IMG/VR virus record: IMGVR_UViG_3300032665_000006
Coordinates: 32,001 to 96,000 of that record
Strand: one strand, 5' to 3'
Length of the DNA: 64,000 bases
From: a virus
In this document: piece after piece, positions 22,593 to 49,924 of the stretch
How positions within the stretch are numbered: position 1 is the first letter of the stretch
Layout of the letters: every line of letters starts with the position of its first letter
Made by a program: the position numbers and the translations under genes
Notes under the pieces: generated by a model
What the model saw: the letters and a program-made list of their open reading frames with translations, nothing else
Told to the model about the DNA's origin: nothing
Database searches by the model: none

Positions 22593-22901
22593 ATGGATAC
22601 TGACAAATTAGTTGCTCACGGCCGTAGCCGTTTTGAACACGAAGCGGCCAAACGAACTCTCAAAGAAAAATATCAAGGTAAATTGATATTTGCTTATAAT
22701 GGCGGAATGTTTAAAGCTAGTCCCGAATTGATTGTATTTTTAAAATCTTGCGAAACAGAAATCGAAGTAGTGTTACTTGATTTATATGATAATCCAATCA
22801 AAGTTAATGTTCACGCATTAAAAATGCTGGCACAACAACGATATCGAGAACAAATGGATGCTTGGTTATTAGAGTACAACGAACTTAATAAAAATAGATG
22901 A
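22593..22901 (+). CDS. Hypothetical protein (102 aa)
   Basis: ORF after a promoter; ATGA overlap with the next gene. Confidence 0.6.
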   Translation: MDTDKLVAHGRSRFEHEAAKRTLKEKYQGKLIFAYNGGMFKASPELIVFLKSCETEIEVVLLDLYDNPIKVNVHALKMLAQQRYREQMDAWLLEYNELNKNR

Positions 22902-23692
22902 CAACCGGCGTATTAATTTTTGCTTTTAATAATGAACATATAGATTATCTAGCTATGGCTAATTGGTCAGCAAAAAATATACGCAGACATTTAAATTTGC
23001 CAGTTGCGGTAGTGACTAATCAATTAGTTCCTAATAATTATTTCTTCGAACAAGTAATACAAGCTGCGCCCGAGGGTAACCATTCAAGAAAGTTTGATGA
23101 TCAAGAAGAAAATGTAACTTGGTATAATGGTAATCGAGCTGATGCTTATAATTTGTCGCCATGGTCGCAAACATTAGTATTAGATGCTGACTATGTAGTG
23201 GCAAGCGATGAATTAAAAAAAGTAATAGCAATGCCAGAAAACTTTATAGCGCACAAAACAGCATATGATATAGTTGACCAAGATAATTTTAGTGAACTTA
23301 ACAACTTCGGTAATTTTAATATGCCTATGTGGTGGGCGACAATAATGATGTTTCGTAGGTCTGCTGAAGCAAAAATGATTTTTGACTGTATGACTATGAT
23401 AAAAAATAATTGGCAACACTATAGAAATTTATATGGTATTGCTCGTTCAACATATCGTAATGATTTTGCGTTAAGCATTGCCTTAGGTATAGTAAATGGG
23501 CATACCCTTAATCATACAGATATTCCGTGGGGACTTGCGTCAGTAACTCCGGCACACAAATTAACACAATTAGAACAAGACAAATATCGTGTAGATTTTT
23601 TAACTAGTGATCAAAAACCACGCTATATAACTTTGTCACAGGACTTTCATGCTATGGGTAAAAAACATTTAGGAGACATTGTTGCTAGTTGA
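22898..23692 (+). CDS. GT-A fold glycosyltransferase-like protein
   Basis: GVLIFA start, 'SPWSQTLVLDADY' DxD motif, 'RNDFALSIA' and a C-terminal His. Confidence 0.6.
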   Translation: MTTGVLIFAFNNEHIDYLAMANWSAKNIRRHLNLPVAVVTNQLVPNNYFFEQVIQAAPEGNHSRKFDDQEENVTWYNGNRADAYNLSPWSQTLVLDADYVVASDELKKVIAMPENFIAHKTAYDIVDQDNFSELNNFGNFNMPMWWATIMMFRRSAEAKMIFDCMTMIKNNWQHYRNLYGIARSTYRNDFALSIALGIVNGHTLNHTDIPWGLASVTPAHKLTQLEQDKYRVDFLTSDQKPRYITLSQDFHAMGKKHLGDIVAS

Positions 23693-24401
23693 ACAAGGAT
23701 ATTTAATTCCGGCGATAGGCGAGGTATATGTTAAATGCGCCAATAAATTAAAGGATAGTATTTTACAGTGGCATCCCGATGTTAATATTACAATATTAAC
23801 AGAAGATATGTTACCGCATGGCAATCTTGGTGGCTTTGCCAATGACTGGCAATGTTACCAAGCAAGCCCGTATAAAAAAACAATTAAGTTGGAAGCAGAT
23901 ATGTGGTGCGCCAGCCCAATCGATCATTGGTGGGACTTGTTTGCTAATCGTGATGTGGTTATTAGTCAAGGTTGTAGAGATTTTTATGATCAACCTGGCA
24001 AGGCAAGAACATATCGTAAAATATTCGATAATAACAATTTGCCTGATGTGTATAATGCTATTACATATTGGGAAGTTAGTGACACAGCTGAAGAATTTTT
24101 TAGATTAGTGCGTGATATGTTTGAACATTGGGAAAGTTATAAACCTTTATTAAAATTTCCCGACGAAATACCTACCACTGATGTAGTATATGGAATGGCA
24201 GCCATTCTAATAGGGCCAGAGAATGTAACTTTACCTTCTGGTCCTACTATCGTTCATATGAAAAAACATATGATACCCATTGTATCAAATGATTGGAGTA
24301 AAGAGTTAATATTAGAACACACTAATCCAGGAGTTAGGATTAATACAGTAGCACAATGGGGTTTTGTACATTATCACATAAAGGATGTTGAAAATGAGTA
24401 A
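23679..24401 (+). CDS. GT-A fold glycosyltransferase-like protein, paralog of the upstream gene
   Basis: 'SPYKKTIKLEADM' (ExD variant), 'TTDVVYGMA', C-terminal HYH. Confidence 0.55.
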   Translation: MLLVEQGYLIPAIGEVYVKCANKLKDSILQWHPDVNITILTEDMLPHGNLGGFANDWQCYQASPYKKTIKLEADMWCASPIDHWWDLFANRDVVISQGCRDFYDQPGKARTYRKIFDNNNLPDVYNAITYWEVSDTAEEFFRLVRDMFEHWESYKPLLKFPDEIPTTDVVYGMAAILIGPENVTLPSGPTIVHMKKHMIPIVSNDWSKELILEHTNPGVRINTVAQWGFVHYHIKDVENE

Positions 24402-24654
24402 AGACGAAGATAAATTTAAGCATAGCAAGCGTTTACAAAAAGTATGGAACGCAATTAGGAAACAATTAAAGATTGCTAAAGCGCACGGTAATCCCATCGA
24501 CGAACCGCACCGTTACGCTAAACATCATGCCATGGACTGTGGCCAGCCTGATTGTAATATGTGTCGCAATCCGCGATATAACGAAACAGTTAAAGGTAAA
24601 GATAAATTGACGGTACAAGAGCGCCGTAATAATCAAAAGAGTAACGATGACTGA
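24394..24654 (+). CDS. Small basic protein with a putative Zn-binding motif
   Basis: HHAMDCGQPDCNMCRNPR. ATG at 24394 is preferred over the track's TTG start. Confidence 0.55.
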   Translation: MSKDEDKFKHSKRLQKVWNAIRKQLKIAKAHGNPIDEPHRYAKHHAMDCGQPDCNMCRNPRYNETVKGKDKLTVQERRNNQKSNDD

Positions 24655-24964
24655 AGACGAATTCTTTGCCGCGTTGGAGCCCGTCTCCCCAGTTGTTAAA
24701 ATACACAGGTTGTACTACGACGAGCAAGGAGCGCCATTATTTTTTAGTCAAGAAGATTTGCCTGGGAAATATATAGATATACCATGGGAAGTATATATTA
24801 ATCCACCTAAGCATTTTAAGGTAATTAATAACAGTATTGTACTTCTTGATACAGCAATAGTTAAAAAATTGTATCCTACCAAAGGCGGCACACCGTGTCA
24901 TCCGCAGGATATTAGTATTGTAGTTAAGAATACAGAACCAAATATTAAATGGAGTTTTCGTTGA
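24647..24964 (+). CDS. Hypothetical protein (105 aa)
   Basis: Overlap-coupled ORF within the GT operon. Confidence 0.55.
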   Translation: MTEDEFFAALEPVSPVVKIHRLYYDEQGAPLFFSQEDLPGKYIDIPWEVYINPPKHFKVINNSIVLLDTAIVKKLYPTKGGTPCHPQDISIVVKNTEPNIKWSFR

Positions 24965-25887
24965 ATCATATTGACATAGCAGAATTAGATTGTGTATATC
25001 TAAGTTACGATGAACCTAATAAAGAAGAAAATTGGGTAAAAATTAAAAATATGGTACCATGGGCTATGAGAGTAGATGGTATCAAAGGATCAGACGCCGC
25101 ACATAAGGCCGCGGCTGATGTCAGTCTTACGGATCGATTTATTTTAATTGACGGTGATAATATTCCCGATGATAACTTTTTTGATCTTTCTTTACGATTG
25201 GAAGAACGAGACGAAAATTGTGTATTTCGTTGGAGAGCCCGTAATCACATTAATGGACTTATGTATGGCAACGGTGGATTAAGTTGCTGGACTAAAGATT
25301 TTATTTACAATATGCGTACACACGAAGCAAGCGATGGCACAGCAGAAAATGATGTGGAGTTTTGTTTTTATCCTAATTATATTGCTATGTACGATTGTTA
25401 TAGTACAACATATCCCAACGCTACACCTTTCCAAGCATGGCGAGCAGGATTCCGCGAAGGCGTTAAGATGTGTCTTGACCGTGGCAGTAAACCTAATATT
25501 ACAGAATTTAAACAAAGAGTTAACAATCGTAATTTAGATCATTTAACAATATGGCAAAATGTTGGCAGAGATGTAGAAAATGGAATATGGTCTATACTTG
25601 GTGCTAGAATGGGTACCTATATGTTAATGATTAATCCTACTTGGGATTATAAAGAAGTTCAAAACTTTGATGCTCTTAAAGCAATATACGAAACTATCAA
25701 CGGGCATGATCCAGAACAAATCGCGGCAAGATTAGCGCCAGATTTAATGAATCAATTAGATTTGCCTATTGCTATGCTAGACGAAAATGCTAGTAAATTC
25801 TTTAAAAGTCACTATCGCAGTGACTGGCACAACAAAGGAATTATGGTTCGCGAGTTAGATGTTATTCGTAAACTCGAGGGGTGGTAA
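24949..25887 (+). CDS. GT-A-like glycosyltransferase/nucleotidyl-sugar enzyme (312 aa)
   Basis: 'LSYDEPN...RVDGIKGSDAAHKAAA...FILIDGDN' DxD motif; 'AWRAGFRE' shared with the paralogous domain at 47349-48060. Confidence 0.55.
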   Translation: MEFSLNHIDIAELDCVYLSYDEPNKEENWVKIKNMVPWAMRVDGIKGSDAAHKAAADVSLTDRFILIDGDNIPDDNFFDLSLRLEERDENCVFRWRARNHINGLMYGNGGLSCWTKDFIYNMRTHEASDGTAENDVEFCFYPNYIAMYDCYSTTYPNATPFQAWRAGFREGVKMCLDRGSKPNITEFKQRVNNRNLDHLTIWQNVGRDVENGIWSILGARMGTYMLMINPTWDYKEVQNFDALKAIYETINGHDPEQIAARLAPDLMNQLDLPIAMLDENASKFFKSHYRSDWHNKGIMVRELDVIRKLEGW

Positions 25888-26430
25888 TCATTTAATACCG
25901 ATTACCATGTATCTAGTAAACTTCCATTCAGGATATACAAATCGTAACTCGCCTTGATACATAATTTCTGAAAGTGGATAGTGTGCGACAAAATCATCGA
26001 TAGTAGCAGAGTGTACCACATGATCATCGTGCGGCATATTGTTGCCTTGTAATATAACTCTTGTGCCGTTTGGAATATTGTTAAACCAATCCATAGTTTC
26101 AAAATGTTCAGTACTAGTGTTAATGATTAAATCTGGATTACCAGGTAATACTTGATTACAGTCTCCGGTTTGGGCTTTAAACTGCCATTCTTTAATTACC
26201 CAATTTTCGTTAATCATATCAGCAATAGATTCGCAAGTAGGATCTAAATCATAACTTTCAATACGGTCCACTCTAAAGTTTTGTCTGCTTAATAATAAAA
26301 ACCCAAGTATACCGTACCAACCGCCGTATACGCGAGTTAGTTTACTATGCCATCCGATAGATTCTAATTCCTGGCATAGCCAAAGTTTACTATCAACTTG
26401 TCCATTCGAAAAAGCATCTTTGTTAATCAT
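25888..26430 (-). CDS. Class I SAM-dependent methyltransferase-like protein
   Basis: Gly-rich motif I VYGGWYG, acidic SYDLD after strand 2, 'DLIINTSTEH'. Confidence 0.6.
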   Translation of the reverse strand: MINKDAFSNGQVDSKLWLCQELESIGWHSKLTRVYGGWYGILGFLLLSRQNFRVDRIESYDLDPTCESIADMINENWVIKEWQFKAQTGDCNQVLPGNPDLIINTSTEHFETMDWFNNIPNGTRVILQGNNMPHDDHVVHSATIDDFVAHYPLSEIMYQGELRFVYPEWKFTRYMVIGIK

Positions 26431-27560
26431 ATGTTTTCCTGTTTTGGAAGCATTGATGCTAAATTACCTAACCATAACCATGGATGTCTAAAAATAGGAT
26501 CTTTCAATATATCTAATAACTCTTGATGATGCGGATGATCCACTTGCCATACAGCCATAGATTTAAATTGTTCGTCGGTCATATGACCCCATTGTGCTAT
26601 ACAAGTAATGTTTATTTCGTGTTTAGATTTATATGATGTTTCGTATTCGACAAATTGTTTTAGTTCTTTAAAGTTATCTTCTTGAACTATAAAATTATTT
26701 TGCCAATGGATTAAATTAGGAAATTTTTTATTGAATACTAACTCATCAAGGTCTTCTAAATTTTTTATTAATTTTTTAAAAATACCATTTTTTCTTACTT
26801 TGCTGTATGTTTCTTCTGTAGCAGCATCTATGCTAACATCTAGATAAGAAATATGTTTTAACAACGGTTCTATTTCCATCCATCTTTCTTTGGTCATTAG
26901 TAAGCCGTTGGTTTTTAAGTTTATTCTAAGATTTTCTGGAATAGGATTATTTGCTAATTCGCAAAGATAATCCCAATAAAATACACTTGCGAACGCATCT
27001 CCTGATGAAGTTATGCCTATAGTAACTAGCTGATCATGATGTATTTCAAGTAATCTATTAACTAATGCTTTTGTTTTTTCATGAATCGTACCGATACGAT
27101 TACTTTCGTATGTATTATCTTTTGGATTCCAATATATAAACTCATTACGACAGCTAGGACATTGTAAATTACAGCTTTGGTCATAATTTAACCCAATATG
27201 TACTAATGTAGATTGTTTGAGTCTTGTTTCTAATTCGTTGCTGGGCACAATCCAATGATTTCGTTTGACACCAGATGTTAGTATTAAATTTAATTCAGGA
27301 CATTGGTCATTACAATAATCAAACTTGCTTTGCTTCATGCCTTCTTGTATTTTCAATCTTGTGGGATTGTTAATAATTTCATCAGCAGAATCAGTAAGAA
27401 CATTGCCAACAATTTCGGGTAACCAAGTACAACAACAAGCACTTACATCACCGTTTCCTAAAATATCATAAAATCCAAAAGGTGTTTTACAAGATAGATT
27501 AGCAAGTTTGGTACTAACATCTCGATAAAAACTTACAGGTTTGATTACAAAATTTACCAT
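26427..27560 (-). CDS. Radical SAM protein with N-terminal Cys-rich SPASM/twitch-like domain
   Basis: CNLQCPSC (CxxxCxxC), SSGD, TNG and SIDA motifs; N-terminal C...GDVSACCC...C..C. Start uncertain (27560/27569/27581). Confidence 0.8.
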   Translation of the reverse strand: MVNFVIKPVSFYRDVSTKLANLSCKTPFGFYDILGNGDVSACCCTWLPEIVGNVLTDSADEIINNPTRLKIQEGMKQSKFDYCNDQCPELNLILTSGVKRNHWIVPSNELETRLKQSTLVHIGLNYDQSCNLQCPSCRNEFIYWNPKDNTYESNRIGTIHEKTKALVNRLLEIHHDQLVTIGITSSGDAFASVFYWDYLCELANNPIPENLRINLKTNGLLMTKERWMEIEPLLKHISYLDVSIDAATEETYSKVRKNGIFKKLIKNLEDLDELVFNKKFPNLIHWQNNFIVQEDNFKELKQFVEYETSYKSKHEINITCIAQWGHMTDEQFKSMAVWQVDHPHHQELLDILKDPIFRHPWLWLGNLASMLPKQENI

Positions 27561-27661
27561 TAGATACATACTTATTAGCATAAATAAGTGTTCAAATAAA
27601 AGTTTATTTGTTTACTCCCCCATCCGTAGTACAATAAATATCATCTCCCCTTAGGACTCTC

Positions 27662-28618
27662 ATGAAGAAAAAATATTATAAATTAGTTCACGCTAAAGAA
27701 ACGAATACTGATTGGTTTGTAGTTAATTGGTGTTTGGGCAATACTTGTAATTTTAGTTGTAGCTACTGTCCAGAAAATTTACATAATGGAACAAATCCAT
27801 GGCCTACTCCGGATACTATCAAAAATTTTATTTCAAAAGTTAAAGCAACACACCCTAACAAAAAATTATATTTTGAATTTACTGGCGGTGAAGTTACATT
27901 GTATAAACATTTTATCGAGATTTGCCAATATTGTACAGAGCAAGGTGTTAAAGTAGGATTAATCTCTAATGGATCAAGAACATTGCGTTATTGGAAAGAA
28001 AACAAACAATATTTTGATCATATATGTTTAAGTTTTCACCCAGAATTCGGCGATGCTGATCACTTTATCGAAGTGGTTAAGGAATTAAATAATGATGTAA
28101 GAACTCATGTTAATATTATGATGAGTCCAGAAAAGTTTGACTATTGCTATGATATAGCGGACAAGATAAAAGATCTTGGAAATATTTCAATGGCGCTTCA
28201 GCCATTAATACATGACTTTGGCGAAGTATTATATGATTATACTCCTGAACAAAAACAAATTATCGATAATCAACATGAATTAATTAGCAAATATATAAAA
28301 TTTACTAAAGAGTTTGAATACTATCGCGGCGCTATGAAAATGTTATATGCCAATGATACTTCTTTGGCAGTTAGTGCTCATCGTTTTATTAATGAAAAAG
28401 CTAATGATTGGTCTGGGTGGGATTGTTATGCGGGAGTAGAACAGTTAATCGTGGATCAACGAGGGGCTATATTCCGTGGGTGGTGTAAAGAAGGCGACTT
28501 GGTAGGCAACATTGCTGATCCAAATTTAAATTTACCCACAGATCCGGTGCGTTGTACTAAATCAATGTGCCATTGTAATTTTGATATCATGAGCACAAAG
28601 GAATATCCAGGTGAGTAA
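27662..28618 (+). CDS. Radical SAM protein with C-terminal Cys cluster
   Basis: CNFSCSYC, TGGE, SNG; C-terminal CYAG...WC...CTKSMCHC. Confidence 0.85.
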   Translation: MKKKYYKLVHAKETNTDWFVVNWCLGNTCNFSCSYCPENLHNGTNPWPTPDTIKNFISKVKATHPNKKLYFEFTGGEVTLYKHFIEICQYCTEQGVKVGLISNGSRTLRYWKENKQYFDHICLSFHPEFGDADHFIEVVKELNNDVRTHVNIMMSPEKFDYCYDIADKIKDLGNISMALQPLIHDFGEVLYDYTPEQKQIIDNQHELISKYIKFTKEFEYYRGAMKMLYANDTSLAVSAHRFINEKANDWSGWDCYAGVEQLIVDQRGAIFRGWCKEGDLVGNIADPNLNLPTDPVRCTKSMCHCNFDIMSTKEYPGE

Positions 28619-29921
28619 AGATACTATATGTACTATCCCTTGGAATCATCTTGCTATTTTACAGAATGGTGATTATGGAATTTGTTGTCAGTGCGTGTAT
28701 AGTGCCGCTGGTCGATTAATTACCGATGGTGTGTCAGAAAATGTGTTAACAAAAGATATTGAAGAAGTTAGAAATCATCCAATGTATGTTGACCTTAGGC
28801 GTAGTATGATGGCCGGGGAAAAACATCCTTTATGTAAATTATGTTGGGATGAAGAAGAACTAGGTATCCTTTCAAAAAGACAAAATCAACAAAAAATTTA
28901 CGGTAATACCTTAGAACAAATTGTTAACTCTGAAGATAAAAGTGGAGTAATTGATACTAAAGAATATCCATTGAACTATTTAGATTTAAGATTGGGAAAT
29001 CTTTGTAATTTAAAGTGTCGTAGTTGCGGTCCAGCAGATAGTTCATTGTGGATCGAGGATATGTATGACGCTGGTATTACTGAATTCCGTGTACAAAACA
29101 TATCTAAATCATACGAAATTGAAAAAAAGAATAATGTATACAAAATTAAAAGTGATGATTTTCAATATTATGCTAGTGAACAATTTGGCAAAAATTTAGA
29201 AGAAACATTGTCTACTATTGATAGAATTTATTTTACGGGCGGCGACCCTTTGCTTAATAAAAAACATTATGAAATATTAGACTATTGTATTGAACACGAT
29301 TACGCAAAAAATATTACACTTGAATACAATACTAACGGAACAACTCTTAACAAAAATTTGTTGGAGCAATGGCGACATTTTGCCCATGTAATAGTTTGTT
29401 TTAGTATTGATGGTATAGGTGATATGGCGCATTATGTTCGCTATCCATCAGACTGGGAAGTTATCGAAGCAAATATAAAAGAGTTAGATAGTTCAGATTT
29501 AACAAATGTACTGTGTACAACTAATTTTACTGTAAGCATATTGAATGTAAAACATTTTTTAGAAACATTAGATTGGTTTTATGCTCAACCCTTTCAAAAA
29601 TTTGGCGGAAGAAATCGAAGACTATACTGGCATCGTTTAGTTGGACCGCCCTGGTTTAATTTACAAGTGTTACCGCAAGAAACAAAACAAGAAATTACAG
29701 CTCTGTATCAAAAATACATGGATGAATCTCCGAGATCATTTATTAAGAGCTATATTGGTCCTATTGTAGATTTTATGAACGCTGGCGATATGAGTCAATA
29801 TTTGCCAGATACAAAAAGAGTTATCGAAGGCATCGACAAGATTAGAAATCAAAAATTAGAAGATTATATTCCTTGGTTATCGGATGTATTGAAAAATGTT
29901 GAAAGCAATGCTAAAAAATGA
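28611..29921 (+). CDS. Radical SAM protein with N-terminal twitch/SPASM-like domain
   Basis: CTIPW...CC...CKLC; CNLKCRSC; TGGDP; TNG; SIDG; VRYP. Confidence 0.85.
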   Translation: MSKDTICTIPWNHLAILQNGDYGICCQCVYSAAGRLITDGVSENVLTKDIEEVRNHPMYVDLRRSMMAGEKHPLCKLCWDEEELGILSKRQNQQKIYGNTLEQIVNSEDKSGVIDTKEYPLNYLDLRLGNLCNLKCRSCGPADSSLWIEDMYDAGITEFRVQNISKSYEIEKKNNVYKIKSDDFQYYASEQFGKNLEETLSTIDRIYFTGGDPLLNKKHYEILDYCIEHDYAKNITLEYNTNGTTLNKNLLEQWRHFAHVIVCFSIDGIGDMAHYVRYPSDWEVIEANIKELDSSDLTNVLCTTNFTVSILNVKHFLETLDWFYAQPFQKFGGRNRRLYWHRLVGPPWFNLQVLPQETKQEITALYQKYMDESPRSFIKSYIGPIVDFMNAGDMSQYLPDTKRVIEGIDKIRNQKLEDYIPWLSDVLKNVESNAKK

Positions 29922-31222: not shown

Positions 31223-31244
31223 GTATTAATGATAAGGAATTAAT

Positions 31245-38779: not shown

Positions 38780-39019
38780 ATGGACACATTTAAAATTAAA
38801 TTTCAAGAACGAATCCCACGCAGTTTGGGCAAAGTTATTACTTGGCGCATTATCTTATCTATTCAATATTTCATTATTGGGTATGCTACTACAGGTAGTT
38901 TGGCAAAAGCCGCTGGCTTAGTTGGAATCACTACCGTTGTTAATAGTGCCATCTACTACTTACACGAAAGAGCTTGGAATAAGTCTAATTGGGGTAAAGT
39001 AGAAACTATTGACGATTAA
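38780..39019 (+). CDS. DUF2061-like small membrane protein
   Basis: 'RSLGKVITWR...YYLHERAWNKSNWG' signature. Confidence 0.75.
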   Translation: MDTFKIKFQERIPRSLGKVITWRIILSIQYFIIGYATTGSLAKAAGLVGITTVVNSAIYYLHERAWNKSNWGKVETIDD

Positions 39020-41050: not shown

Positions 41051-41116
41051 ATAAAAAATATTTAGCTTAAAAACTGGGCACAAAAAAATAAACAAGTAAA
41101 TAGTATACAGAGGTAT

Positions 41117-41593
41117 TTGATGATACAAAATCCAACAAAAGGTAGTTTAATAGGAACCGAACAGGATAAACTTGGAGCCACAGTATTGGTTAGTTTTATT
41201 GATGCTATAGGTGGATCGCCATTAGTTCCTTTGCTTATGAAAAACTTTGCAAAATTAATCGAAGACGGTCATGGTGCTAACTATGTAGCATTTGGTAACA
41301 AGAACAAAGCTGTTTATATAGAAGTTGATAATAAGATTGTGGGACATATCGTTTATTATCATATACCGGACGATTCGCTAAACACAGCCCGGATCATACT
41401 TAGTTGGGTTGACGAAAATTATCGACAACGCGGCCTTTATAAAATTTTACACAAATACTTTGAATTAGTTTTAAAAACTGCTGGGTCTAAGCGTATTGCT
41501 AGCTATGTGGCTATAGACAATATCGCTCGTTTATCGAGTTGCGAGTCAGTTGGTATGCAAAAACATTCTTATCGAATGGAAAAATTTTTATAA
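41117..41593 (+). CDS. GNAT acetyltransferase
   Basis: 'WVDENYRQRGLYKIL' motif A; 'N.....SCESVGM'. Confidence 0.75.
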   Translation: MMIQNPTKGSLIGTEQDKLGATVLVSFIDAIGGSPLVPLLMKNFAKLIEDGHGANYVAFGNKNKAVYIEVDNKIVGHIVYYHIPDDSLNTARIILSWVDENYRQRGLYKILHKYFELVLKTAGSKRIASYVAIDNIARLSSCESVGMQKHSYRMEKFL

Positions 41594-42658: not shown

Positions 42659-42666
42659 AATAGTAT

Positions 42667-43587
42667 TTACTTCGATACATCCAAGATTTTGACCCATTTA
42701 TTGTAAGTAGGCTCTACTTCTCTTTCTATATAATCATTTTTTGGATTCATATCGATATTATAATCTTGTTCTTTATAAAAGTTAACTCTATTAGCTTTCA
42801 TAAAACCGACAGTTATACTTCGAACAAGCAAATCTATGTCTTTAGTATCACGACTTACAGTTATTCCAAAATAATTAACTAATGTAGGAACTGGAGCATA
42901 CTTAGTAATACTAGGAACTCCGTTGATTCCGGTAGGTTGTGCTACACCTAAAATGCGTACTTGTGACCCTCGCAGATTTAACGATCCATACGCATCTGAA
43001 ACCATATCTACTTGTCCGCTCAGCAGAGCCATAAGCTCTTCGTTGCCGCCTTTGTATCTAATTGCCTGAATGTCGTGATGACTATATTTGGCAATTTGTT
43101 TAACTAACATTTCGTGGGATTCTCCACCAACAGCAATGTTAATACTTTGTCTTGGAATTTTTTTATCAAACAAATCGCCGATTGATTTAAATTTACTGTC
43201 TGGTCTTACTGCGATAGCTAGTGGACTAGTTATTACTGGGCCAATAACCTTTAATCGATCAATAAAGTTATTTTCAGGATGTACAAGTGCTTCAAATAAA
43301 ACTTGGCCACCCGATGTACCTAATATTGATTTGTTTGTTTGAGGTTTTTCAAAATAAGTTTTTAATGCGATAGAACCATTTGCTCCAGGTCGTTCTAATA
43401 CAATAAATTTTAAACGCCCAGCAGTATCAGCATCACTAACAAAAGTTCTAATGATAGTATTGGCGCCTCCAGCACCATATCCTACTGTAACCACAACATC
43501 GTCTGACTCTGTAGTCCAAGGCATAGTATATGTGCCGGCCCATACCAAATTGCTAGTTAACAGTAATAATAAAAGTAGTTTTTTCAT
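42667..43587 (-). CDS. Bug/TctC-family tripartite tricarboxylate solute-binding protein with signal peptide
   Basis: Signal peptide MKKLLLLLLLTSNLVWA; GYGAGG, RPGANG, 'IRYKGG.E...LLSGQVD', 'GVPSI'. Confidence 0.75.
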   Translation of the reverse strand: MKKLLLLLLLTSNLVWAGTYTMPWTTESDDVVVTVGYGAGGANTIIRTFVSDADTAGRLKFIVLERPGANGSIALKTYFEKPQTNKSILGTSGGQVLFEALVHPENNFIDRLKVIGPVITSPLAIAVRPDSKFKSIGDLFDKKIPRQSINIAVGGESHEMLVKQIAKYSHHDIQAIRYKGGNEELMALLSGQVDMVSDAYGSLNLRGSQVRILGVAQPTGINGVPSITKYAPVPTLVNYFGITVSRDTKDIDLLVRSITVGFMKANRVNFYKEQDYNIDMNPKNDYIEREVEPTYNKWVKILDVSK

Positions 43588-43621
43588 AATCTAATACTTA
43601 TCTTGTTATTTGCGTTGCCAT

Positions 43622-43647
43622 AAAAAAAGCACTCCGAAGAGTGCTTT
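43622..43647 (-). terminator. Intrinsic terminator (UUCG loop) after dctP
   Basis: Minus strand AAAGCACTC-TTCG-GAGTGC followed by a T7 run. Confidence 0.85.
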
Positions 43648-43665
43648 GATTTTATTACTATTTAA

Positions 43666-44622
43666 TTAAGCATTTTTAATGCGGTTAACCAAATCATCAG
43701 AGAAGTATGTAGTATACTTGTCATAGATTGGAGCCATCATGGCTTTGAACTTAGCAACTTCTGCTTCATCCCATTTAACAACATTAACACCGTTAGCACG
43801 GCACTCTGCTTCAACACGAATAGCGTCTTCAACACTTTCGACACGCTCAATCTTAGCACTAGCTACACCAGCTGCTTTCATAGCGGCTTGCTGTTCTTCT
43901 GTTAATGTATTCCAAAACTCACGATTAACGATGATACTAGTACAAGCAACATTATGCTCCATATCATTGATGAATGGTAATGCTTTGTCATTGTTTAAAG
44001 GATAGTAACGTGTGTAAGTACACTCGCCAGCTTCTACTTCACCGGACAATGTGCGTTCTGTTAATTCTTCAACTGGGAAGAATGTAGTTTCAGCACCTAA
44101 CGCATCAAATGTGTCTTTGATAACTGGCCCACTACTAACACGGAACTTAACGCCTTTAAAATCTTCTACACTAGCAATAGACTTAGTAGCAGGAATAGTT
44201 CTATAACCACCAGAGTAAGTAAATGCTAATGCTTTGATCTTTTCGCCGCCTTCTGATTCTAATTTACCTAAAAGTTCTTCACCGATAGCACCGTCAAATA
44301 CACGAGCTGCATGATCATGATCTTTAAACAAGAAAGGCATATCGATAACATTTAATGTACGGGAATAGCGATCAGCTAACCATGTTGTGTATAATTGACT
44401 TACTTGGATCTTACCAGCTTCCATTAAATCTAATACATCTTTTTTGCCGACTGGGACACCGTTGTTGTATTTTTCGCTGTATTCACTATCAGTTAATACT
44501 TCGATTTCGATCTGTCCTGGAACACGCTCTTCTAGCGCATCCTTGAAAAATTTAGCAGCACGGATAAACAAATATGCTGGATCGTGAGCAATAACCCACA
44601 CAATTTTTTTACTTTGACTCAT
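43666..44622 (-). CDS. dctP: TRAP-type DctP solute-binding protein lacking a signal peptide
   Basis: DMPFLFKD..HA, GGYR, 'EDFKGVKFRV', LGA, 'FWNTLTEEQQ' motifs; AAGGAGA SD; own terminator. Confidence 0.8.
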   Translation of the reverse strand: MSQSKKIVWVIAHDPAYLFIRAAKFFKDALEERVPGQIEIEVLTDSEYSEKYNNGVPVGKKDVLDLMEAGKIQVSQLYTTWLADRYSRTLNVIDMPFLFKDHDHAARVFDGAIGEELLGKLESEGGEKIKALAFTYSGGYRTIPATKSIASVEDFKGVKFRVSSGPVIKDTFDALGAETTFFPVEELTERTLSGEVEAGECTYTRYYPLNNDKALPFINDMEHNVACTSIIVNREFWNTLTEEQQAAMKAAGVASAKIERVESVEDAIRVEAECRANGVNVVKWDEAEVAKFKAMMAPIYDKYTTYFSDDLVNRIKNA

Positions 44623-44654
44623 TTTTATCTCCTTTAGATAATGTACAGTTTTAT

Positions 44655-45830
44655 TTATTCGATTTTTCCGATAACATATCGATTGCTATATAAACGAAAA
44701 CCAGTGCCCTTTGGACGCAGATATTTGTGTTTAATATTCCTAAAAAAGTGGGTAAAATCACTAACAATAAGCTGATGCAATCGTGTTTCGCGATGATTTT
44801 TGTAAAACCAATAGTCATGACTAGCCATGAATACTTCTTTAGCTTTTTTAGCTTGGAAACTAGAAGTCATATCAATATCAGGGTATATAATAGGCACTAT
44901 AGCCCGTTCGTAAGTCCCATTCCTGCTAGCAATAAATTCTTTCTTTTCAGGCGACCATAAAGTTTCGTAATTTTCAACATATCTGTGTTTACTCCAGTCA
45001 AATATGTAATCTTTTATATACTGGTATTGTGGTAACTTAATCATTTTAATTATTTCGTGCGACTGTTTTATTACTATCTCGGGCAATCTTGGAGTTGAAT
45101 AAAACAACACAATATCAACATTATCGTAAAATTGATCAAATGGTTGTCGGGGAACATTGATACTAGCATCGTTAAATTCGGTATAAATTGTATCATTTTC
45201 AAAAGATAACTTTGGCTTTTCTATTCCGTAAACAACGGCTATTCGTTTGCCTTGATCAGCTAATGCTTTAAGATGTGTTAGTTGATCTAGCCGATATCTG
45301 GCAACAGTAGTAGGATGAATATGATCCGAAGATTGATAAAGCCATTCGTCGGTTTTATAGTCCAACATAGTTTTAAAAAAGTCATTAATAGAAATTTTTA
45401 TATCAGGATGCGACATAGATACTTCGTGTAAATATGGCATAGTAGTTAACAGCCATTCACTTGCGTTATTGCTAGCCGCAGTATCAGTTGATGCTTTAAA
45501 ATCTCGTAAGCCAGTTAACGGTACTCCGGCAACTACTTCGTCTACACGAATATTATTGTTTAAAAAACTGTGAAGTACGTTAGTGCTATCAGCACCTCCG
45601 CTAAACATAACTACAACATAATCATATTCATCTCTGATTTGACGTGCTCTAATTTTGTAAAGCTCGGTTAATGATAAAGTTGGCTCAATAGTCCAATTAG
45701 TTTGGTTGAACTTGTCTATATGAAAGTCCCAAGTAATATCAGCTTCAGTTTTGCCTGCTTCTAAAATAGCTTCAATTTTATCTAGATATACTTTATTGTC
45801 AACAATATACTTGCCTAAATATTCCTTCAT
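44655..45830 (-). CDS. PP-loop ATPase, subfamily B
   Basis: 'YDYVVVMFSGGADSTN', GIEKP, FYSTP...KQSH. Confidence 0.7.
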   Translation of the reverse strand: MKEYLGKYIVDNKVYLDKIEAILEAGKTEADITWDFHIDKFNQTNWTIEPTLSLTELYKIRARQIRDEYDYVVVMFSGGADSTNVLHSFLNNNIRVDEVVAGVPLTGLRDFKASTDTAASNNASEWLLTTMPYLHEVSMSHPDIKISINDFFKTMLDYKTDEWLYQSSDHIHPTTVARYRLDQLTHLKALADQGKRIAVVYGIEKPKLSFENDTIYTEFNDASINVPRQPFDQFYDNVDIVLFYSTPRLPEIVIKQSHEIIKMIKLPQYQYIKDYIFDWSKHRYVENYETLWSPEKKEFIASRNGTYERAIVPIIYPDIDMTSSFQAKKAKEVFMASHDYWFYKNHRETRLHQLIVSDFTHFFRNIKHKYLRPKGTGFRLYSNRYVIGKIE

Positions 45831-47038
45831 TGTATATTTTCCAAAAATTGTTTGTAGTGGCCAATCTTATAGCGTTGTGTGTATAATTTAAAACCAGTTT
45901 GTTGTGGTGACAAGTACATAGGGTTTATATTTTTATAAAATAATTTAAAATCACTTTCTAATAGTTGTGAAGTCCGTGTGTCTTTGTGTAATTGGTCAAA
46001 CCAACTACTTTGAGGCGGCAAAAAAGCTACTGTAGATTTTTGACACTGAAACACCGGAGTAACTGTTGACGGATATATAGCAGGAACAATACCGCGTTGA
46101 TAATCTCCTTTTATATTAACAACAGCACTATCGTTTGGATCCTTACTTTTCCAAAAGCCAGGATTGCCCATATTTCGTACAGCGTCTACTAACCAACGAT
46201 TTTCTTTTTTGTGAATATACTTAGCAGTTACATGACTCTGCTTAACTAAAACTTCGGGCATTTCTGGACCCCAGTAAAACAAGATACGATTAACATTAGG
46301 ATAAAGAATGTCAAAAGGTAACACAACATTATTAACTCCTAAATCAGTAATCATAGTATAAACATTACCGTGTTCATCATATCGCAACAACGGTTTATCG
46401 CAACCCCACACTATGCCTATGCGTTTGCCTGCTTCGGCCATGTCTTTAAGATACTTAAATTTGTTCAAGTCACCCTTGCCAGTTACTGAGGGTGTAATCC
46501 AGTCGGGGCATTTATAAAGCCAATCATCAGTTTTACTATTAATAATATCTTCGAAAAAATCATTAATAGTAACTTTGACTTTTGGAAAGTTTACAGAAAT
46601 TTCATGTAGCAATGGAAACAATGCGTATTTTGTTTCGCTCATTGTATTGCTAGCAGAAGTATCTTTATCGTTCCAATCCCAGTTACTTAATCCGGACATA
46701 GGAGCTGATCCAATTACTTCGTCTACATGGATACCATTATTTAAAAAACTTTTAATTACATTGGTACTATCAGCGCCGCCGCTACACATAACGATTACAT
46801 AATCGTATGAATCTCTAATTTGTTGGGCTCTTAGGCGATAAAGTTCGTCTAAGGATAACGCTGGCTCGGTAAGCCAGTCTATTTGATTGAATACATCTCT
46901 ATGAAAATTCCATCTAATTTCAGTAAGCGTTTTTTGTGCTTCTAAAACAGCTTCAATTTTGCTTATAAAAACTTTATTATTAACGCTGTAATGCCCAGCT
47001 TCCCAATAAGAAGCTGGAAAATTTTCGTAAAGATTCAT
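45827..47038 (-). CDS. PP-loop ATPase, subfamily B (tandem paralog)
   Basis: 'YDYVIVMCSGGADSTN', GCDKP, FYWGP...KQSH. Confidence 0.7.
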   Translation of the reverse strand: MNLYENFPASYWEAGHYSVNNKVFISKIEAVLEAQKTLTEIRWNFHRDVFNQIDWLTEPALSLDELYRLRAQQIRDSYDYVIVMCSGGADSTNVIKSFLNNGIHVDEVIGSAPMSGLSNWDWNDKDTSASNTMSETKYALFPLLHEISVNFPKVKVTINDFFEDIINSKTDDWLYKCPDWITPSVTGKGDLNKFKYLKDMAEAGKRIGIVWGCDKPLLRYDEHGNVYTMITDLGVNNVVLPFDILYPNVNRILFYWGPEMPEVLVKQSHVTAKYIHKKENRWLVDAVRNMGNPGFWKSKDPNDSAVVNIKGDYQRGIVPAIYPSTVTPVFQCQKSTVAFLPPQSSWFDQLHKDTRTSQLLESDFKLFYKNINPMYLSPQQTGFKLYTQRYKIGHYKQFLENIQ

Positions 47039-47042
47039 CTAA

Positions 47043-47348
47043 TTAGGAAACGGTCTCGTTGCTAAGAGTTGTTAAACCAATCGAAGCATTATACGCAGAT
47101 CTTTCGGTAGCAAGTGGTCTTGTTAATCTAGCAGAATGCCAAGCTGCGTAATTTTCTACAGTATCAAATACTACTGTATAAACTTTAGTATTTTCGTCTG
47201 TGTTTTCGTAGTGTTGACTAACAAATCCTGGTTGCTGTGAAGTCCAAACATCATGAGCAGTTGCTTTAGCTTTGTTGTCGGCGCTTACATCGCCATAAAA
47301 AGTTGTACCAGCTGGTTTTCTTGAATAAATCGTAAGGGTAATTGCCAT
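47043..47348 (-). CDS. Small protein, possible dimeric alpha-beta barrel (ABM-like)
   Basis: 'QQPGFVS...YTVVFDTVENYAAW' pattern; AGGAGA SD and upstream TAAATA. Confidence 0.4.
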   Translation of the reverse strand: MAITLTIYSRKPAGTTFYGDVSADNKAKATAHDVWTSQQPGFVSQHYENTDENTKVYTVVFDTVENYAAWHSARLTRPLATERSAYNASIGLTTLSNETVS

Positions 47349-48977
47349 TTAAATATCTCCTAATAGTATATTATTTAGTGATAATACTTTAGCAAACTCT
47401 GATTCTAACCAATTAAAATCATTGATTAACCCTAATGCTTCTAAGTCACCACTATTTGTTTTGCCATAATTGTAACCAGCAATAGCACCTTTAATAGCCC
47501 ATTCTCCGTAAGGTTTGTATTTGCCCTCTGAACACCAAACTTTAAGTCGTTTTTGACTTTCCCGGGATAGTTGTCGTTTCATAATGCCCCCACTTAGTTT
47601 AGCACATTCTCTGAACGCACTACGCCAAGTATTAAATTCACTGGTATTAAACGCAGTAACATTACTAATTCTATCCATAATTTTAAATTTTTTGCTAATA
47701 CTAGTAGTCATATCAGTATTAGATGGATCTGCTAATAACATTAATTCTTTAGGGATTAATTTAACTCCGCCATAGCCGTATTCTAGATTATTGACAGGAT
47801 TTATACTACGCCAAACATGAACACAGTCACGATCAAACAAATTAGGTTGGAATGTAAAATCCCATTCTTCCATTAACCAAGCATCACCGTCTACAACATA
47901 AAACATATCGGTAGTTACTAATTCGGCGGCACACTTGTGAGCGTTAACAATTCCGTTAACTCCATCTACACGAAATGCTTGCGGAACTTTTTCTAAAACA
48001 CGTTGCCAATTATCTTCAGCATTGGGTTCGTTATAACTTATAAACACAACATCTAATTGCTCAGGCAAATCAACTTTAATTTTTCCTACTACTTTAACAC
48101 CTTTTGATTCGTGCGGGATAATTTTAGCAGCCCAAATTTCCTCGTAACTGTTAACTAATGTATCGTCGACAAGCCAGATATGTTCATAATTTAAATCATA
48201 GTAAGGAATTTTATCTTCTATTGTGTAATTTAATTCAGGCAATGCTGGGTTATAAACTATCTTAGGTTTAACATATCCCATATCTTTTACAGGCTTAACA
48301 CCACCGCCTCGAACTTTTAATTTAATGGCCCATACTCTATCGAGCGTAGGATTAAACTGATTATCTAAGTACCATACACATTCGTACTTTAAATCATACC
48401 ATTGCATCTTATAATCAAAGTTATAATCTATTTTGGGAATATCGCGGTTATAAATAGTTCTAATTAACACATCGAGTGTCAGATAGCCCATATCCTTTGT
48501 ACCCGATACTCCAAAGTCCGTTGCTTGAGCTTTTAATGCCCATACTTTATCGGGGGTGGGATTAAACTCAGGATCGATATACCAAACTAATTGATATTTT
48601 AAGTCACTTAAATTCAATGTAGTAGAGGTTGGGTCATTAATAAACGGAATAGAACTATCTATGTCCGGATTTCTTTCCCATGTAATATTAATGTCATCTA
48701 GTGTTATAGTATAGAATCGTTTGATAGTCTGCCAAGATTTAGTAAAGTATTTTACTATCCACTGGCCTTGGCAATTCCACACGGTTGAATATTCATTTTG
48801 ATATTTTTCCAAATCTATTTTTTCAAATAAACCCAAATGACTAAATTCTGGATTAATAACAATAAACTCATCTCGGCCTTGCCCTAGTTCGTATAAAGCA
48901 TTGTTATAATCTAAGGAAATACCTTTCCATTCTACTTTTTCTACTTCTTCTTTAGGTACTATATAAACATTAATCAT
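47349..48977 (-). CDS. GT-A-like domain fused to N-terminal tandem repeats
   Basis: The C-terminal 'FISYNEPN...RVDGVNGIVNAHK...VVDGD...WRSAFRE' domain is paralogous to 24949-25887. Repeats read LKY..VWY.D..FNPT.D.VWA.K...KDMGY. Start placed at the ATGA overlap. Confidence 0.6.
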   Translation of the reverse strand: MINVYIVPKEEVEKVEWKGISLDYNNALYELGQGRDEFIVINPEFSHLGLFEKIDLEKYQNEYSTVWNCQGQWIVKYFTKSWQTIKRFYTITLDDINITWERNPDIDSSIPFINDPTSTTLNLSDLKYQLVWYIDPEFNPTPDKVWALKAQATDFGVSGTKDMGYLTLDVLIRTIYNRDIPKIDYNFDYKMQWYDLKYECVWYLDNQFNPTLDRVWAIKLKVRGGGVKPVKDMGYVKPKIVYNPALPELNYTIEDKIPYYDLNYEHIWLVDDTLVNSYEEIWAAKIIPHESKGVKVVGKIKVDLPEQLDVVFISYNEPNAEDNWQRVLEKVPQAFRVDGVNGIVNAHKCAAELVTTDMFYVVDGDAWLMEEWDFTFQPNLFDRDCVHVWRSINPVNNLEYGYGGVKLIPKELMLLADPSNTDMTTSISKKFKIMDRISNVTAFNTSEFNTWRSAFRECAKLSGGIMKRQLSRESQKRLKVWCSEGKYKPYGEWAIKGAIAGYNYGKTNSGDLEALGLINDFNWLESEFAKVLSLNNILLGDI

Positions 48978-49924
48978 TTTTGTATAAGCCAATCGTAGTA
49001 TTCTTGAAATCCTTCTTCTATATCTATAGTAGGATAGTAGCCAAAGTCGCTCCGTGCTCGCATAGTGTTTAATTGACCTCGAACTGGGAAGTTATTATCT
49101 CTAGATTTTACAATTACTGTGCCTTTACCTGCAATTTTAACAGCTAAATTTGCCGCATCTAACAAAGTACGTGATTGTCCGCGAGTGATATTATAAGTAC
49201 CATTGAGTGTATTTTCACTTACAGCCGCCAATGCTATCCCTGTGGCCGCATCGTCGATAAAAGTAAAGTCTAAGGTATCATCGATGCCGTTAACTATAAG
49301 TTCTCCGCCCTCGATAGCAGTAGTCAAATATTTACTGACTACTCTGTCAACTACATCATATGGTCCGTATATAGCACTAGGGCGAATAATAGTATAATCC
49401 AAATTATATTGACGACTATAATCCTGTACTAGCCATTCGCCGGCTAATTTCATTATACCATATGCGCCAATAGGCCTACAGTCGGCAGCTTCATCCATCC
49501 CATCAAAAAATTCGTGTTTACCAAAGTTTCCGTACACCATAGATGAACTTACATAAACAAACTTTTTAACTTTATGCTTAACACTTAGGTCTAATAAGTT
49601 AAGTAGCCCTTCGCTCATCACACGACTGCCCCATGTTGGGTTACTATTAACTACTTTTTGTCTAGGAAAGCTAGCTAAGTGTATTACAACATCTACACCT
49701 TCGAATATGCTATCATCAAAAGGTTTTTCAATGCTAGCAATACAAATATCACGAGTTTTAATGCGACACATACGCTCAAGCATTAAGTAATCTAATTCTG
49801 GTTGTGGAATAACGCCGTAAGTTGTTTTGTTATCGATAATAGCAACGTCGTGGCGGAAACTTTCGAGTACACGAACTACATTGTGTCCTACGAAACCTAA
49901 TCCACCGGTTACTAATATTTTCAT
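48974..49924 (-). CDS. NAD-dependent NDP-sugar epimerase/dehydratase (extended SDR)
   Basis: MKILVTGGLGFVG, HLAS, SSSMVYG, YGIMK (YxxxK), YGP. True start at 49924. Confidence 0.9.
   Translation of the reverse strand: MKILVTGGLGFVGHNVVRVLESFRHDVAIIDNKTTYGVIPQPELDYLMLERMCRIKTRDICIASIEKPFDDSIFEGVDVVIHLASFPRQKVVNSNPTWGSRVMSEGLLNLLDLSVKHKVKKFVYVSSSMVYGNFGKHEFFDGMDEAADCRPIGAYGIMKLAGEWLVQDYSRQYNLDYTIIRPSAIYGPYDVVDRVVSKYLTTAIEGGELIVNGIDDTLDFTFIDDAATGIALAAVSENTLNGTYNITRGQSRTLLDAANLAVKIAGKGTVIVKSRDNNFPVRGQLNTMRARSDFGYYPTIDIEEGFQEYYDWLIQK

Follow-up and report, generated by a model that had tools for sequence, protein, structure and literature searches.

Why would a phage carry some 27 kb of enzyme genes of the kind that tailor natural products, side by side with its tail genes? 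The question is raised by a 64,000-nucleotide stretch of viral DNA (the window), which corresponds to bases 32001-96000 of the 133,477-bp IMG/VR virus record IMGVR_UViG_3300032665_000006. An initial annotation from the sequence alone had described positions 22898-49924 of the window (the island) as resembling a biosynthetic gene cluster that the phage uses to make a complex modification. Although a glycan-type role is plausible, the island is not a single fixed pathway: it consists of a conserved core plus 16 kb of swappable cassettes. Judging from sequence and predicted structure, the core comprises two GT8-like and two GT2-like glycosyltransferases, a radical S-adenosylmethionine (SAM) enzyme with an N-terminal twitch domain, a small protein (at 25888) that may be methyltransferase-like, and an epimerase. 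This core flanks a slot, and related phages carry differing enzyme cassettes in the slot. Our preferred but tentative interpretation is an exchangeable glycan-tailoring locus whose enzymes work in the cytoplasm, with the fibre proteins of the virion as their most likely target.

The comparisons below draw on four related viral contigs (G001-G004), which were found via the radical SAM gene at 29918, and on 76 viral loci that were retrieved with a family of PP-loop ATPases of about 390 amino acids (aa). G004 is a 348,701-bp record that is rated 100% complete, and G001 is the closest relative (its backbone proteins are 64-81% identical). In the left half of the core, the genes of 22593-25887 have overlapping starts and stops. 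The core gene order is matched in G001, G003, G004 and the cultured phage RsoM2USA, which is the sole GenBank phage record to match the GT2-like protein (gp347-358, 23-41% identity). The right half, which consists of a 547-aa protein and the epimerase, is conserved in G001 and in loci L014-L016, L022 and L028. Homologues of the 25888 protein are present in 11 of the 76 loci as well as in RsoM2USA (gp347). The small protein encoded at 24385-24654 contains a CxxxxCxxC patch and is conserved in 9 of the 76 loci, at 47-67% identity.

The four glycosyltransferase (GT)-like proteins of the initial annotation have no Pfam GT match, but other lines of evidence support the label. DGD and DAD motifs are visible in their sequences. 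The profile of the family that contains the 22898 and 23679 proteins (profile A6) matches glycogenin, a GT8 enzyme, among PDB sequences (E 6e-4). The AlphaFold2 (AF2) model of the protein at 24949-25887 has a mean predicted local distance difference test score (pLDDT) of 80.3, and its GT-A matches from Foldseek include SunS, ArnC, TarP and A64R, the capsid glycosyltransferase of chlorovirus PBCV-1. The C-terminal part of the 547-aa protein (47349-48992) is paralogous to the 24949 protein (E 5e-28). Viral clusters labelled "GT2-like" in the Atlas match the core GT-like proteins, and three of the fold or profile matches (SunS, PBCV-1 A64R and glycogenin) are enzymes that glycosylate proteins. 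The N-terminal 300 residues of the 547-aa protein, which precede the GT-A-like domain, contain three repeats of about 50 residues (W-Y/L-x-D-x-x-F/L-N-P-T-x-D-K/R-V-W-A-x-K); its homologue in G004 has 1380 aa.

All four predicted radical SAM proteins have the CX3CX2C motif. Those at 28611-29921 and 29918-31222 are members of NF033640 (352 and 324 bits; cut-off 170). The one at 26427-27581 reaches 51.7 bits and is not a member; it is particular to this phage: neither the four relatives nor the 76 loci have a homologue. For the radical SAM operon at 27662-31222, identities to the relatives are 40-67%, and for its 318-aa radical SAM protein they are 63-86%. The 318-aa protein also has sub-threshold similarity to viperin-like enzymes (59.8 bits; cut-off 180) and to the STM4011 family. 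We rejected a reading of the SPASM matches as signs of a ribosomally synthesized and post-translationally modified peptide (RiPP): the cysteine domains are the N-terminal twitch of NF033640 and not a RiPP recognition element (RRE), and no precursor was found.

The content of the slot varies from relative to relative. All of G001-G004 share the backbone on both sides, and none of them has a homologue of any gene in 31245-47348, the variable inner part of the island. The slot of G001 encodes three short-chain dehydrogenase/reductase-type epimerase/dehydratases, an RmlC-type 3,5-epimerase, a thiamine pyrophosphate E1-like enzyme, a GDSL acylhydrolase and a radical SAM enzyme (10 of 13 open reading frames, or ORFs, were scanned), which by these family assignments is a deoxysugar-type set. 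The slot of G004, of which 10 of 19 ORFs were scanned, encodes a Pfam GT2 and four radical SAM enzymes, among them one with a B12-binding domain. Its other recognised products are a metallophosphoesterase, a sodium:dicarboxylate symporter and an amino-acid-type binding protein. Beside the epimerase block, G004 (L094, at G004:C1:21354-22247) and G003 (L093) also have a thymidylate-synthase-family gene (E about 1e-107), which sits between the homologues of 50136 and 50733 and is missing at that place in the window.

Parts of this phage's own cassettes are present in more distant loci. The order desaturase, PP-loop, GNAT-like is retained at 43-82% identity in several loci: this module reaches 73-82% identity in L022 and is found again in L019, L031 and L051. 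A block of amidohydrolase, TctC-like, DctP-like and PP-loop genes is present in L014-L016. At the nucleotide level, the decarboxylase-like (amidohydrolase) gene is 97.9% identical to its counterpart in L015, the TctC-like gene 68.3%, the DctP-like gene 91.1%, the two PP-loop genes 68% each, and the backbone genes 72-77%. Such sharp jumps show that diverged phages have recently exchanged single genes. The initial annotation had named randomly shuffled passengers as the finding that would speak against a joint product, and the inner 16 kb, being built of cassettes, comes close to that; yet the same families recurrently co-occur, which argues against pure chance.

The five PP-loop ATPases all have the SGGxDS motif and fall into two families. 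The three proteins of about 390 aa are mutually paralogous and have no Pfam match and no NCBIfam match above cut-off. Their profile has no meaningful match to PDB sequences (best E 0.5). The AF2 model (pLDDT 90) resembles PDB structures only in the PP-loop core (LarE, MnmA, TtuA, TilS and NAD synthetase, with template modelling (TM) scores of about 0.2), and its full-length matches are solely to uncharacterised proteins of uncultured phages. Among 1.84 billion representatives searched with the profile, at least 765 clusters (at 50% identity) matched with E <= 1e-30 and 1,675 with E <= 1e-3. The family is absent from all 50,697 GenBank phage records, as is the family of about 305 aa, and a pattern-based scan, from which weak relatives can escape, found it in 2 of 185,579 species genomes. 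Both of these matches (L091 and L092) are short contigs, binned into metagenome-assembled genomes (MAGs) of Methylococcaceae and of Polynucleobacter, and they are probably phage DNA. The distribution indicates that the ~390-aa family is almost exclusively viral.

For the PP-loop family of about 305 aa, the nearest relative by profile (A2) is NH3-dependent NAD synthetase, which amidates a carboxylate (E 1.5e-7). Neither family has an invariant cysteine, which favours adenylation followed by amide formation over sulfur transfer. In the 76 loci, the commonest companions of the ~390-aa family are the ~305-aa PP-loops (32 loci) and desaturases (25 loci). We also considered and rejected a role in 7-deazaguanine synthesis, as suggested by weak QueC matches: these reach 22 bits against a cut-off of 150, there is no TGT family protein, and there is no conserved cysteine.

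The two solute-binding proteins of the initial annotation have Pfam matches to DctP and TctC. The DctP-like protein scores 155 bits (cut-off 23.4), and its nearest relatives in PDB are tripartite ATP-independent periplasmic (TRAP) receptors (4X8R, 4N8Y and 4MHF, E 5e-27 to 2.5e-23), whose ligands are glucuronate or galacturonate (PMC11668362 and PMC7660916, each in part). When aligned with the solved hexuronate binders, it keeps both carboxylate-binding arginine positions. It lacks a signal peptide, as do 12 of 12 distinct viral homologues, so it cannot act as a periplasmic receptor. The TctC-like protein (33.3 bits; cut-off 27) has a signal peptide, and so do 4 of 4 viral homologues. No DctM partner is encoded in G000, G004, G005 or G006, and no TctA partner is encoded in these four records. 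The Amidohydro_2 protein is closest in PDB to non-oxidative aromatic-acid decarboxylases, namely gamma-resorcylate decarboxylase, 2,3-dihydroxybenzoate decarboxylase and ACMSD.

The late-type motif TAAATA, from which late expression of the island had been proposed, is borne out in the longer form ATAAATA, which is enriched before gene starts. There are 11 copies in the window on both strands, and 7 of them lie 5-60 nt upstream of a same-strand start (0.26 expected); across the 133-kb record, this is true of 14 of the 24 copies (0.84 expected). The motif precedes the baseplate wedge gene, the fibre gene (at 20208 and 20233, 48 and 23 nt upstream), an HNH gene, and three units of the island: the radical SAM operon at 27662 (motif at 27634, 21 nt upstream), the Rieske gene (37893) and the DctP-like gene (43666). 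We rejected the canonical T4 late promoter TATAAATA as a signal here, as it is strongly depleted (1 match in the window against 15.6 expected, and at least 1 in every one of 100 shuffles), while the shorter ATAAATA marks starts. The GT operon at 22593 is preceded not by the late motif but by a hairpin and a sigma-70-like site (TTTACT-17-TATAAT). Late-type expression thus fits three island units and not the GT operon, and timing within the island is probably mixed. In scans of 20000-39999, neither sigma-70 sites (103, against 95.3 in shuffles) nor terminators (10, against 10.3) were enriched. Near-consensus TTGACA-N17-TATAAT sites lie directly upstream of three genes on the right flank (54289, 55630 and 58574), which suggests that these genes are early and read by the host polymerase.

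We base the glycan-tailoring interpretation on seven observations: the GT core lies beside the fibre genes and is conserved across the deep divergence to RsoM2USA; the same slot has deoxysugar content in G001; export machinery is absent; carboxylate binding and adenylation form a common theme; the PP-loop families are exclusive to viruses, and hence are not borrowed host metabolism; ATAAATA precedes both the baseplate and fibre genes and three island units; and the fold and profile matches of the GT-like proteins include enzymes that glycosylate proteins. As to export, none of the 31 island ORFs has a Pfam match to Wzx, Wzy, an ABC exporter or an initiating transferase, and the desaturase is the only island protein with more than one hydrophobic segment. 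The lack of any flippase, polymerase or exporter makes a virion protein the likeliest acceptor, for example the giant fibre protein. The core would build a sugar chain from nucleotide sugars on this intracellular acceptor, and the cassettes would supply and tailor the substituents of the chain. The secreted TctC-like receptor may help to import a carboxylic acid via membrane parts of the host, and the leaderless DctP-like protein may hold the carboxylate in the cytoplasm. The PP-loop ATPases would adenylate carboxyl groups, which would then be joined to amines as amides, and the oxygenases, the desaturase, the GNAT and the decarboxylase-like enzyme may modify the pieces. A bound carboxylate would thereby become an amide on a sugar and finally part of a virion protein, giving the island a virion-linked role. 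The outcome would be a virion surface chemistry that differs between strains.

A more elaborate form of this proposal is speculative, and we think it unlikely to hold in full. It casts the island as a programmable "virion surface chemistry" locus of the jumbo phages in this lake clade, a viral counterpart of the bacterial O-antigen locus: a fixed GT core would decorate the giant fibre proteins within the cell, and interchangeable cassettes, with virus-only PP-loop amidoligases fed by leaderless DctP-type carriers of carboxylates in the cytoplasm, would add amide-linked, oxidised substituents. If this were true, cassette exchange between co-occurring phages would diversify host range or aid evasion of recognition.

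Several findings weigh against glycan tailoring. The Foldseek scores behind the GT-A assignment of the 24949 protein are weak (probability 0.8-1.0, E about 1e-3, TM 0.26-0.44), the GT8 assignment rests on the profile match at E 6e-4, and the GT operon has the sigma-70-like site in place of the late motif. In the phage DctP-like protein, the asparagine that contacts the hexuronate in the solved receptors is replaced. Pfam scans of the window ORFs revealed no aminotransferase, nucleotidyltransferase or uronate-forming dehydrogenase. A homologue of a GT-like protein or of the epimerase lies within about 10 kb in just 18 of the 76 PP-loop loci. Among 150 neighbouring ORFs from 11 of these loci, desaturases (11) and radical SAM enzymes (8) come first, and a ketoacyl synthase and an acyltransferase are also present, which hints at lipids rather than sugars. 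Finally, the uneven identity of adjacent genes (97.9% next to 68%) shows that genes move singly, as passengers would.

This last point is what one would expect of a recombination hot spot that gathers unrelated auxiliary metabolic genes, each serving the infected cell alone, so that only the GT core is a unit. Such genes might act in membrane-lipid desaturation, in taking up and converting aromatic or sugar acids present in lake water, or as assorted hydroxylases. We consider this, the main rival, somewhat doubtful, while taking it seriously. Besides the absence of the inner 16 kb from all four nearest relatives and the changing identity to L015 (97.9%, 68.3% and 91.1% for neighbouring genes), cassettes are shared piecemeal with different phages, and the island has several short units on both strands. 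The TctC-like protein has the signal peptide expected of a helper in host uptake; the decarboxylase-like, Rieske and NMO genes resemble those of aromatic-acid catabolism; and desaturases, fabF-type genes and substrate-transport genes are known in aquatic myophages (PMC7029224, in part). However, five PP-loop ATPases of two families for which no cellular homologues were found cannot have been borrowed from host metabolism. The same families recur jointly in divergent viral loci (32, 25 and 17 of the 76), and the desaturase, PP-loop, GNAT-like order is held across several of them. Nor can leaderless DctP-like proteins serve in uptake as periplasmic receptors, and neither DctM nor TctA is encoded in four records.

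Glycan tailoring also has to be weighed against the synthesis of a free small molecule, for instance an amide-linked, oxidised metabolite derived from sugars or amino acids that would aid the infected cell or harm competitors. The enzymes are of kinds that typically carry out tailoring, neighbouring loci contain ATP-grasp, P450 and PhyH genes, and Iyer et al. proposed a sugar/amino-acid secondary-metabolite cluster in jumbo cyanophages (PMC7824862, in part). Yet Pfam scans of the window found no scaffold enzyme, precursor peptide, RRE domain, exporter or immunity gene. The locus lies within the structural region, and its content varies between close relatives, which would be unexpected for a single metabolite. 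We judge a free metabolite to be improbable.

Hypermodification of the phage's DNA or of tRNA seems slightly less probable still. Adenylation of nucleobases is the reaction of most characterised PP-loop enzymes, and pathways of DNA hypermodification include glycosyltransferases and radical SAM enzymes. Here, the structural neighbours of the PP-loop core include the tRNA-modifying MnmA, TtuA and TilS besides LarE, the 318-aa radical SAM protein has its sub-threshold similarity to viperin (59.8 against 180 bits), and the phage encodes tRNAs. But there is no TGT/DpdA homologue in four records, which include the complete relative (the record of this phage is 39% of a genome), and the sole thymidylate-synthase-family gene, which is present in G003 and G004 and absent from this 39% record, scores as canonical (E 5e-107). 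The PP-loop families have no conserved cysteine for thiolation, the island lies in the fibre module and not among replication genes, and such extreme variation from strain to strain would be unusual for a DNA modification pathway.

AspH-family and desaturase-family enzymes include lipid hydroxylases. Even so, we regard as very unlikely the idea that core and cassettes modify the host's surface polysaccharide or lipid A during infection and block superinfection, as proposed for pelagimyophages: GT8-type transferases in hypervariable fibre-region islands have been so interpreted (PMC7029224, in part) and the TctC-like protein is predicted to be exported, but the window scans found no flippase, polymerase, ligase, bactoprenol-linked transferase or exporter, and the phage looks lytic, with no integrase among the scanned window ORFs (a weak point, given the partial genome).

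The features of the window are listed in Table 1. The ORF listing has 31 tightly packed ORFs in 22898-50014, in line with the "about 30" genes that had been counted, and most of the enzyme labels (TauD, AspH-like, Rieske, desaturase, NMO, amidohydrolase and epimerase, besides those already discussed) are supported by Pfam matches. A few labels fared less well. Of three proposed GNAT-like proteins, the one at 41117 is firm, while those at 34063 and 36421 are weak: 3 of 10 members of their family touch GNAT models (best E 1.5e-3), the family profile has chance-level matches only in PDB, and alignment of this profile to the window's true GNAT with hhalign gives an unusable probability of 28% over 29 columns. 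The label "methyltransferase" for the 25888 protein is also weak. It has no Pfam match, its family profile has only chance-level matches in PDB, and the lead comes from an Atlas viral cluster (at 0.94) in which 21% of members have PF13847. A proposed cupin, presumably the gene at 31245, has no match even in a relaxed Pfam scan, and scanning ten unexplained ORFs against Pfam at E values up to 5 gave no usable match. The absence of a biosynthetic scaffold is upheld: no polyketide synthase (PKS), nonribosomal peptide synthetase (NRPS), terpene synthase or precursor peptide with a recognition domain was matched by Pfam or NCBIfam in the scanned ORFs. As for the end of the island at 49924, it fits the likelier start of the epimerase gene, because the Pfam domain begins at residue 33 of the longest ORF and relatives align over 313-318 of 346 residues. 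An ORF with a DUF6552 match (E 1.4e-7; 49921-50211, minus strand) overlaps codons 1-31 of the longest epimerase ORF, which again favours a start at 49924.

Table 1. Predicted features of the window, in order of position (+ and - denote the strand; aa, amino acids).
Feature	Position	Strand	Basis or remark
Baseplate wedge	292-3720	+	phrog_10646
Giant ORF, 5004 aa, directly after baseplate wedge	3720-18734	+	one FG-GAP repeat match
Tail-fibre-like gene	20263-21549	+	PHROG fibre matches; Peptidase_G2 intramolecular-chaperone (IMC) cleavage domain, E 8e-5
315-aa ORF, no assigned function, after fibre gene	within 20263-22510	+	
102-aa ORF	from 22593	+	first gene of GT operon; left half of conserved core
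GT8-like	22898-23692	+	family profile against PDB, glycogenin
GT8-like	23679-24401	+	family profile against PDB, glycogenin
Small ORF, 89 aa, very basic, Cys-rich	24385-24654	+	
Small ORF	24647-24964	+	
GT-A/GT2-like	24949-25887	+	AF2 model and Foldseek
Small conserved protein, possibly class I methyltransferase-like fold	25888-26430	-	Atlas lead
Radical SAM with N-terminal SPASM/twitch-like Cys domain	26427-27581	-	Pfam Radical_SAM and SPASM
Radical SAM, 318 aa	27662-28618	+	CX3CX2C
N-terminal-twitch radical SAM	28611-29921	+	NF033640
N-terminal-twitch radical SAM	29918-31222	+	NF033640
253-aa gene without matches	from 31245	+	
195-aa gene, no assigned function	within the 31245-34066 cassette	-	
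TauD	32577-33461	-	Pfam E 2e-20
AspH-like	33458-34066	-	Pfam Asp_Arg_Hydrox E 5e-6
Possibly GNAT-like	34063-34662	-	weak
PP-loop, ~305 aa	34659-35576	-	SGGxDS
Delta9-type desaturase	35576-36394	-	FA_desaturase E 6e-16; three His boxes readable in sequence
Possibly GNAT-like	36421-36996	+	weak
PP-loop, ~305 aa	36986-37912	+	SGGxDS
Rieske oxygenase	37893-38735	-	Pfam
PP-loop, ~390 aa	39006-40163	-	SGGxDS
NMO-like flavoenzyme	40160-41128	-	Pfam
GNAT	41117-41593	+	Pfam
Amidohydro_2, decarboxylase-like	41588-42697	-	Pfam
TctC-like with signal peptide	42667-43587	-	Pfam
DctP-like, leaderless	43666-44622	-	Pfam
PP-loop, ~390 aa	44655-45830	-	SGGxDS
PP-loop, ~390 aa	45827-47038	-	SGGxDS
101-aa gene, no assigned function	47043-47348	-	
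547-aa protein: three N-terminal repeats and C-terminal GT-A/GT2-like domain	47349-48992	-	paralogy to 24949
NDP-sugar epimerase/dehydratase	48974-49924 (longest ORF to 50014)	-	Pfam Epimerase E 7e-40; phrog_540

The setting confirms that the island is phage DNA that adjoins tail genes: it lies in a virus record, and the baseplate wedge gene, the 5004-aa ORF and the fibre gene are all upstream. The baseplate wedge subunit matches its PHROG family at E 5e-282, and Rak2-like jumbo myoviruses, at about 34% identity, are its best relatives in GenBank (of 96 matching records, 87 align over at least 80% of the query). With CheckV completeness at 39%, the record implies a genome of roughly 340 kb. 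The source thus appears to be an uncultured, Rak2-like jumbo myovirus of lake water. The giant ORF is 36-53% identical to parts of the giant ORFs of relatives, and it has weak homology to the giant ORF361 of RsoM2USA, which has been reported in virions (PMC8504454, in part). A homing endonuclease gene of the GIY-YIG/I-TevI type (19537-20211, plus strand) separates the fibre gene from a conserved 202-aa gene; since none of the four relatives has a homologue, it is probably a recent insertion. On the right flank (50-64 kb) are HNH endonucleases, an ATPase (phrog_1297) and three tRNA genes. The tRNA genes, on the minus strand in 61229-61392 and 62482-62574, are Thr(TGT), Asn(GTT) and an unusual Ser with the anticodon ACT.

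A megablast of 19 kb of the island against the 50,697 phage records gave no match, and the G+C content (32-36% across the island, 35-41% in the flanks) does not mark the island as foreign DNA. The stretch is widespread in lake-water metagenomes: 19 of the 24 listed runs contain at least half of the sampled words. In two runs that are not flagged as the source (X15 and X16), contigs cover 30 of 30 bins of 29501-49500, and 33 of 35 and 31 of 34 pieces, respectively, are at least 99% identical to the window. One X16 contig (30903-31593) spans the junction at 31222/31245, and one X15 contig (47083-48237) spans the junction at 47348/47349. Since contigs from other lake-water runs span both inner junctions, a chimeric join with host DNA, which the initial annotation had raised, is ruled out. 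The MAG contigs, the TctC-type receptor and the Ralstonia phage relative together hint at a Burkholderiales-type host.

Hypervariable islands beside the tail-fibre genes of aquatic myophages are already known. The nearest described system is the host recognition cluster of pelagimyophages and cyanomyophages (Zaragoza-Solas et al. 2020; PMC7029224, in part), which likewise sits within the structural region as a large island without synteny, next to a giant gene and fibres. Like the island here, it has GT8-type transferases, radical SAM cassettes that vary among close relatives, AspH-type hydroxylases and transport-related genes, and it diverges gradually, cassette by cassette. Those phages are T4-like with genomes of about 150-200 kb, in contrast to the roughly 340-kb Rak2-like phage here. 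Furthermore, their cluster is bounded by VrlC and the neck gene gp14, whereas here the right flank has early-type genes and no neck gene was found. Multi-copy PP-loop ATPases, the pair of N-terminal-twitch radical SAM and GT2-like proteins, and leaderless DctP-like proteins were not found in the passages of that study that were compared.

The clusters of jumbo cyanophages described by Iyer, Anantharaman and Aravind in 2021 (PMC7824862, in part) combine polymorphic, paralogous glycosyltransferases with 2-oxoglutarate oxygenases and cupins, and are proposed to decorate a polysaccharide or to make a metabolite. They centre on carbamoyltransferases, a halogenase and HAD phosphatases, unlike the radical SAM enzymes, PP-loop ATPases, desaturase and binding proteins here, and the terms "PP-loop", "Rieske" and "solute-binding" do not occur in the text of that article. 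T4-like marine environmental genomes also have multiple radical SAM genes in one aquatic myovirus, up to 12 (Nishimura et al. 2017; PMC5332604, in part); these are discussed as Fe-S-related metabolism, and the passage compared does not describe a locus. Four core glycosyltransferase groups have been described in another aquatic jumbo lineage (PMC12619734), which is not tied to this phage and is not used as evidence here.

In RsoM2USA (MG752970), gp347-358 are all annotated as "hypothetical protein". They run from a giant structural ORF and a fibre-like gene through two GT8-like, a GT2-like, an N-terminal-twitch radical SAM, a second GT2-like and a 25888-like gene, in the same order as here, and an epimerase-like gene is nearby, as in the core of the window. 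Unlike the window, the 31 kb inspected have no PP-loop, desaturase, oxygenase or binding-protein cassettes, and the core is compact. In virus-encoded virion glycosylation, as in PBCV-1 (A64R) and reportedly in mycobacteriophages, soluble GT-A transferases are encoded beside structural genes. The same arrangement is seen here for the predicted transferases. In those systems the transferases number one to a few, and a large tailoring set like that of the window is missing. Bacterial O-antigen and capsule loci share with the island their conserved flanks and a hypervariable middle of sugar-nucleotide enzymes, transferases and substituent-adding enzymes. They also have Wzx/Wzy or an ABC exporter along with an initiating transferase, whereas none of these was found in the island ORFs, nor any polytopic membrane protein except the desaturase. 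O-antigen and capsule loci use PP-loop amidotransferases for acetamidino and uronamide groups; the PP-loop families of the window match no NCBIfam model above cut-off.

Full-text searches found no paper that describes the PP-loop families, the leaderless DctP-type proteins or the core cassette of RsoM2USA (supplementary tables, which are outside such searches, may list some of the genes). Three unrecognised groups are open to expression and assay: the ~390-aa PP-loop family, the NadE-like PP-loop family of about 305 aa, and the leaderless DctP-type protein. That the conserved glycosylation core reaches a cultured phage gives a concrete shape to the question of what such islands do. Even if the genes are independent passengers, the locus documents exchange, gene by gene, between diverged phages of a single habitat. 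If virions are decorated by the product, then phages would own a strain-variable surface chemistry, which would affect host range, competition between phages and the design of phage particles.

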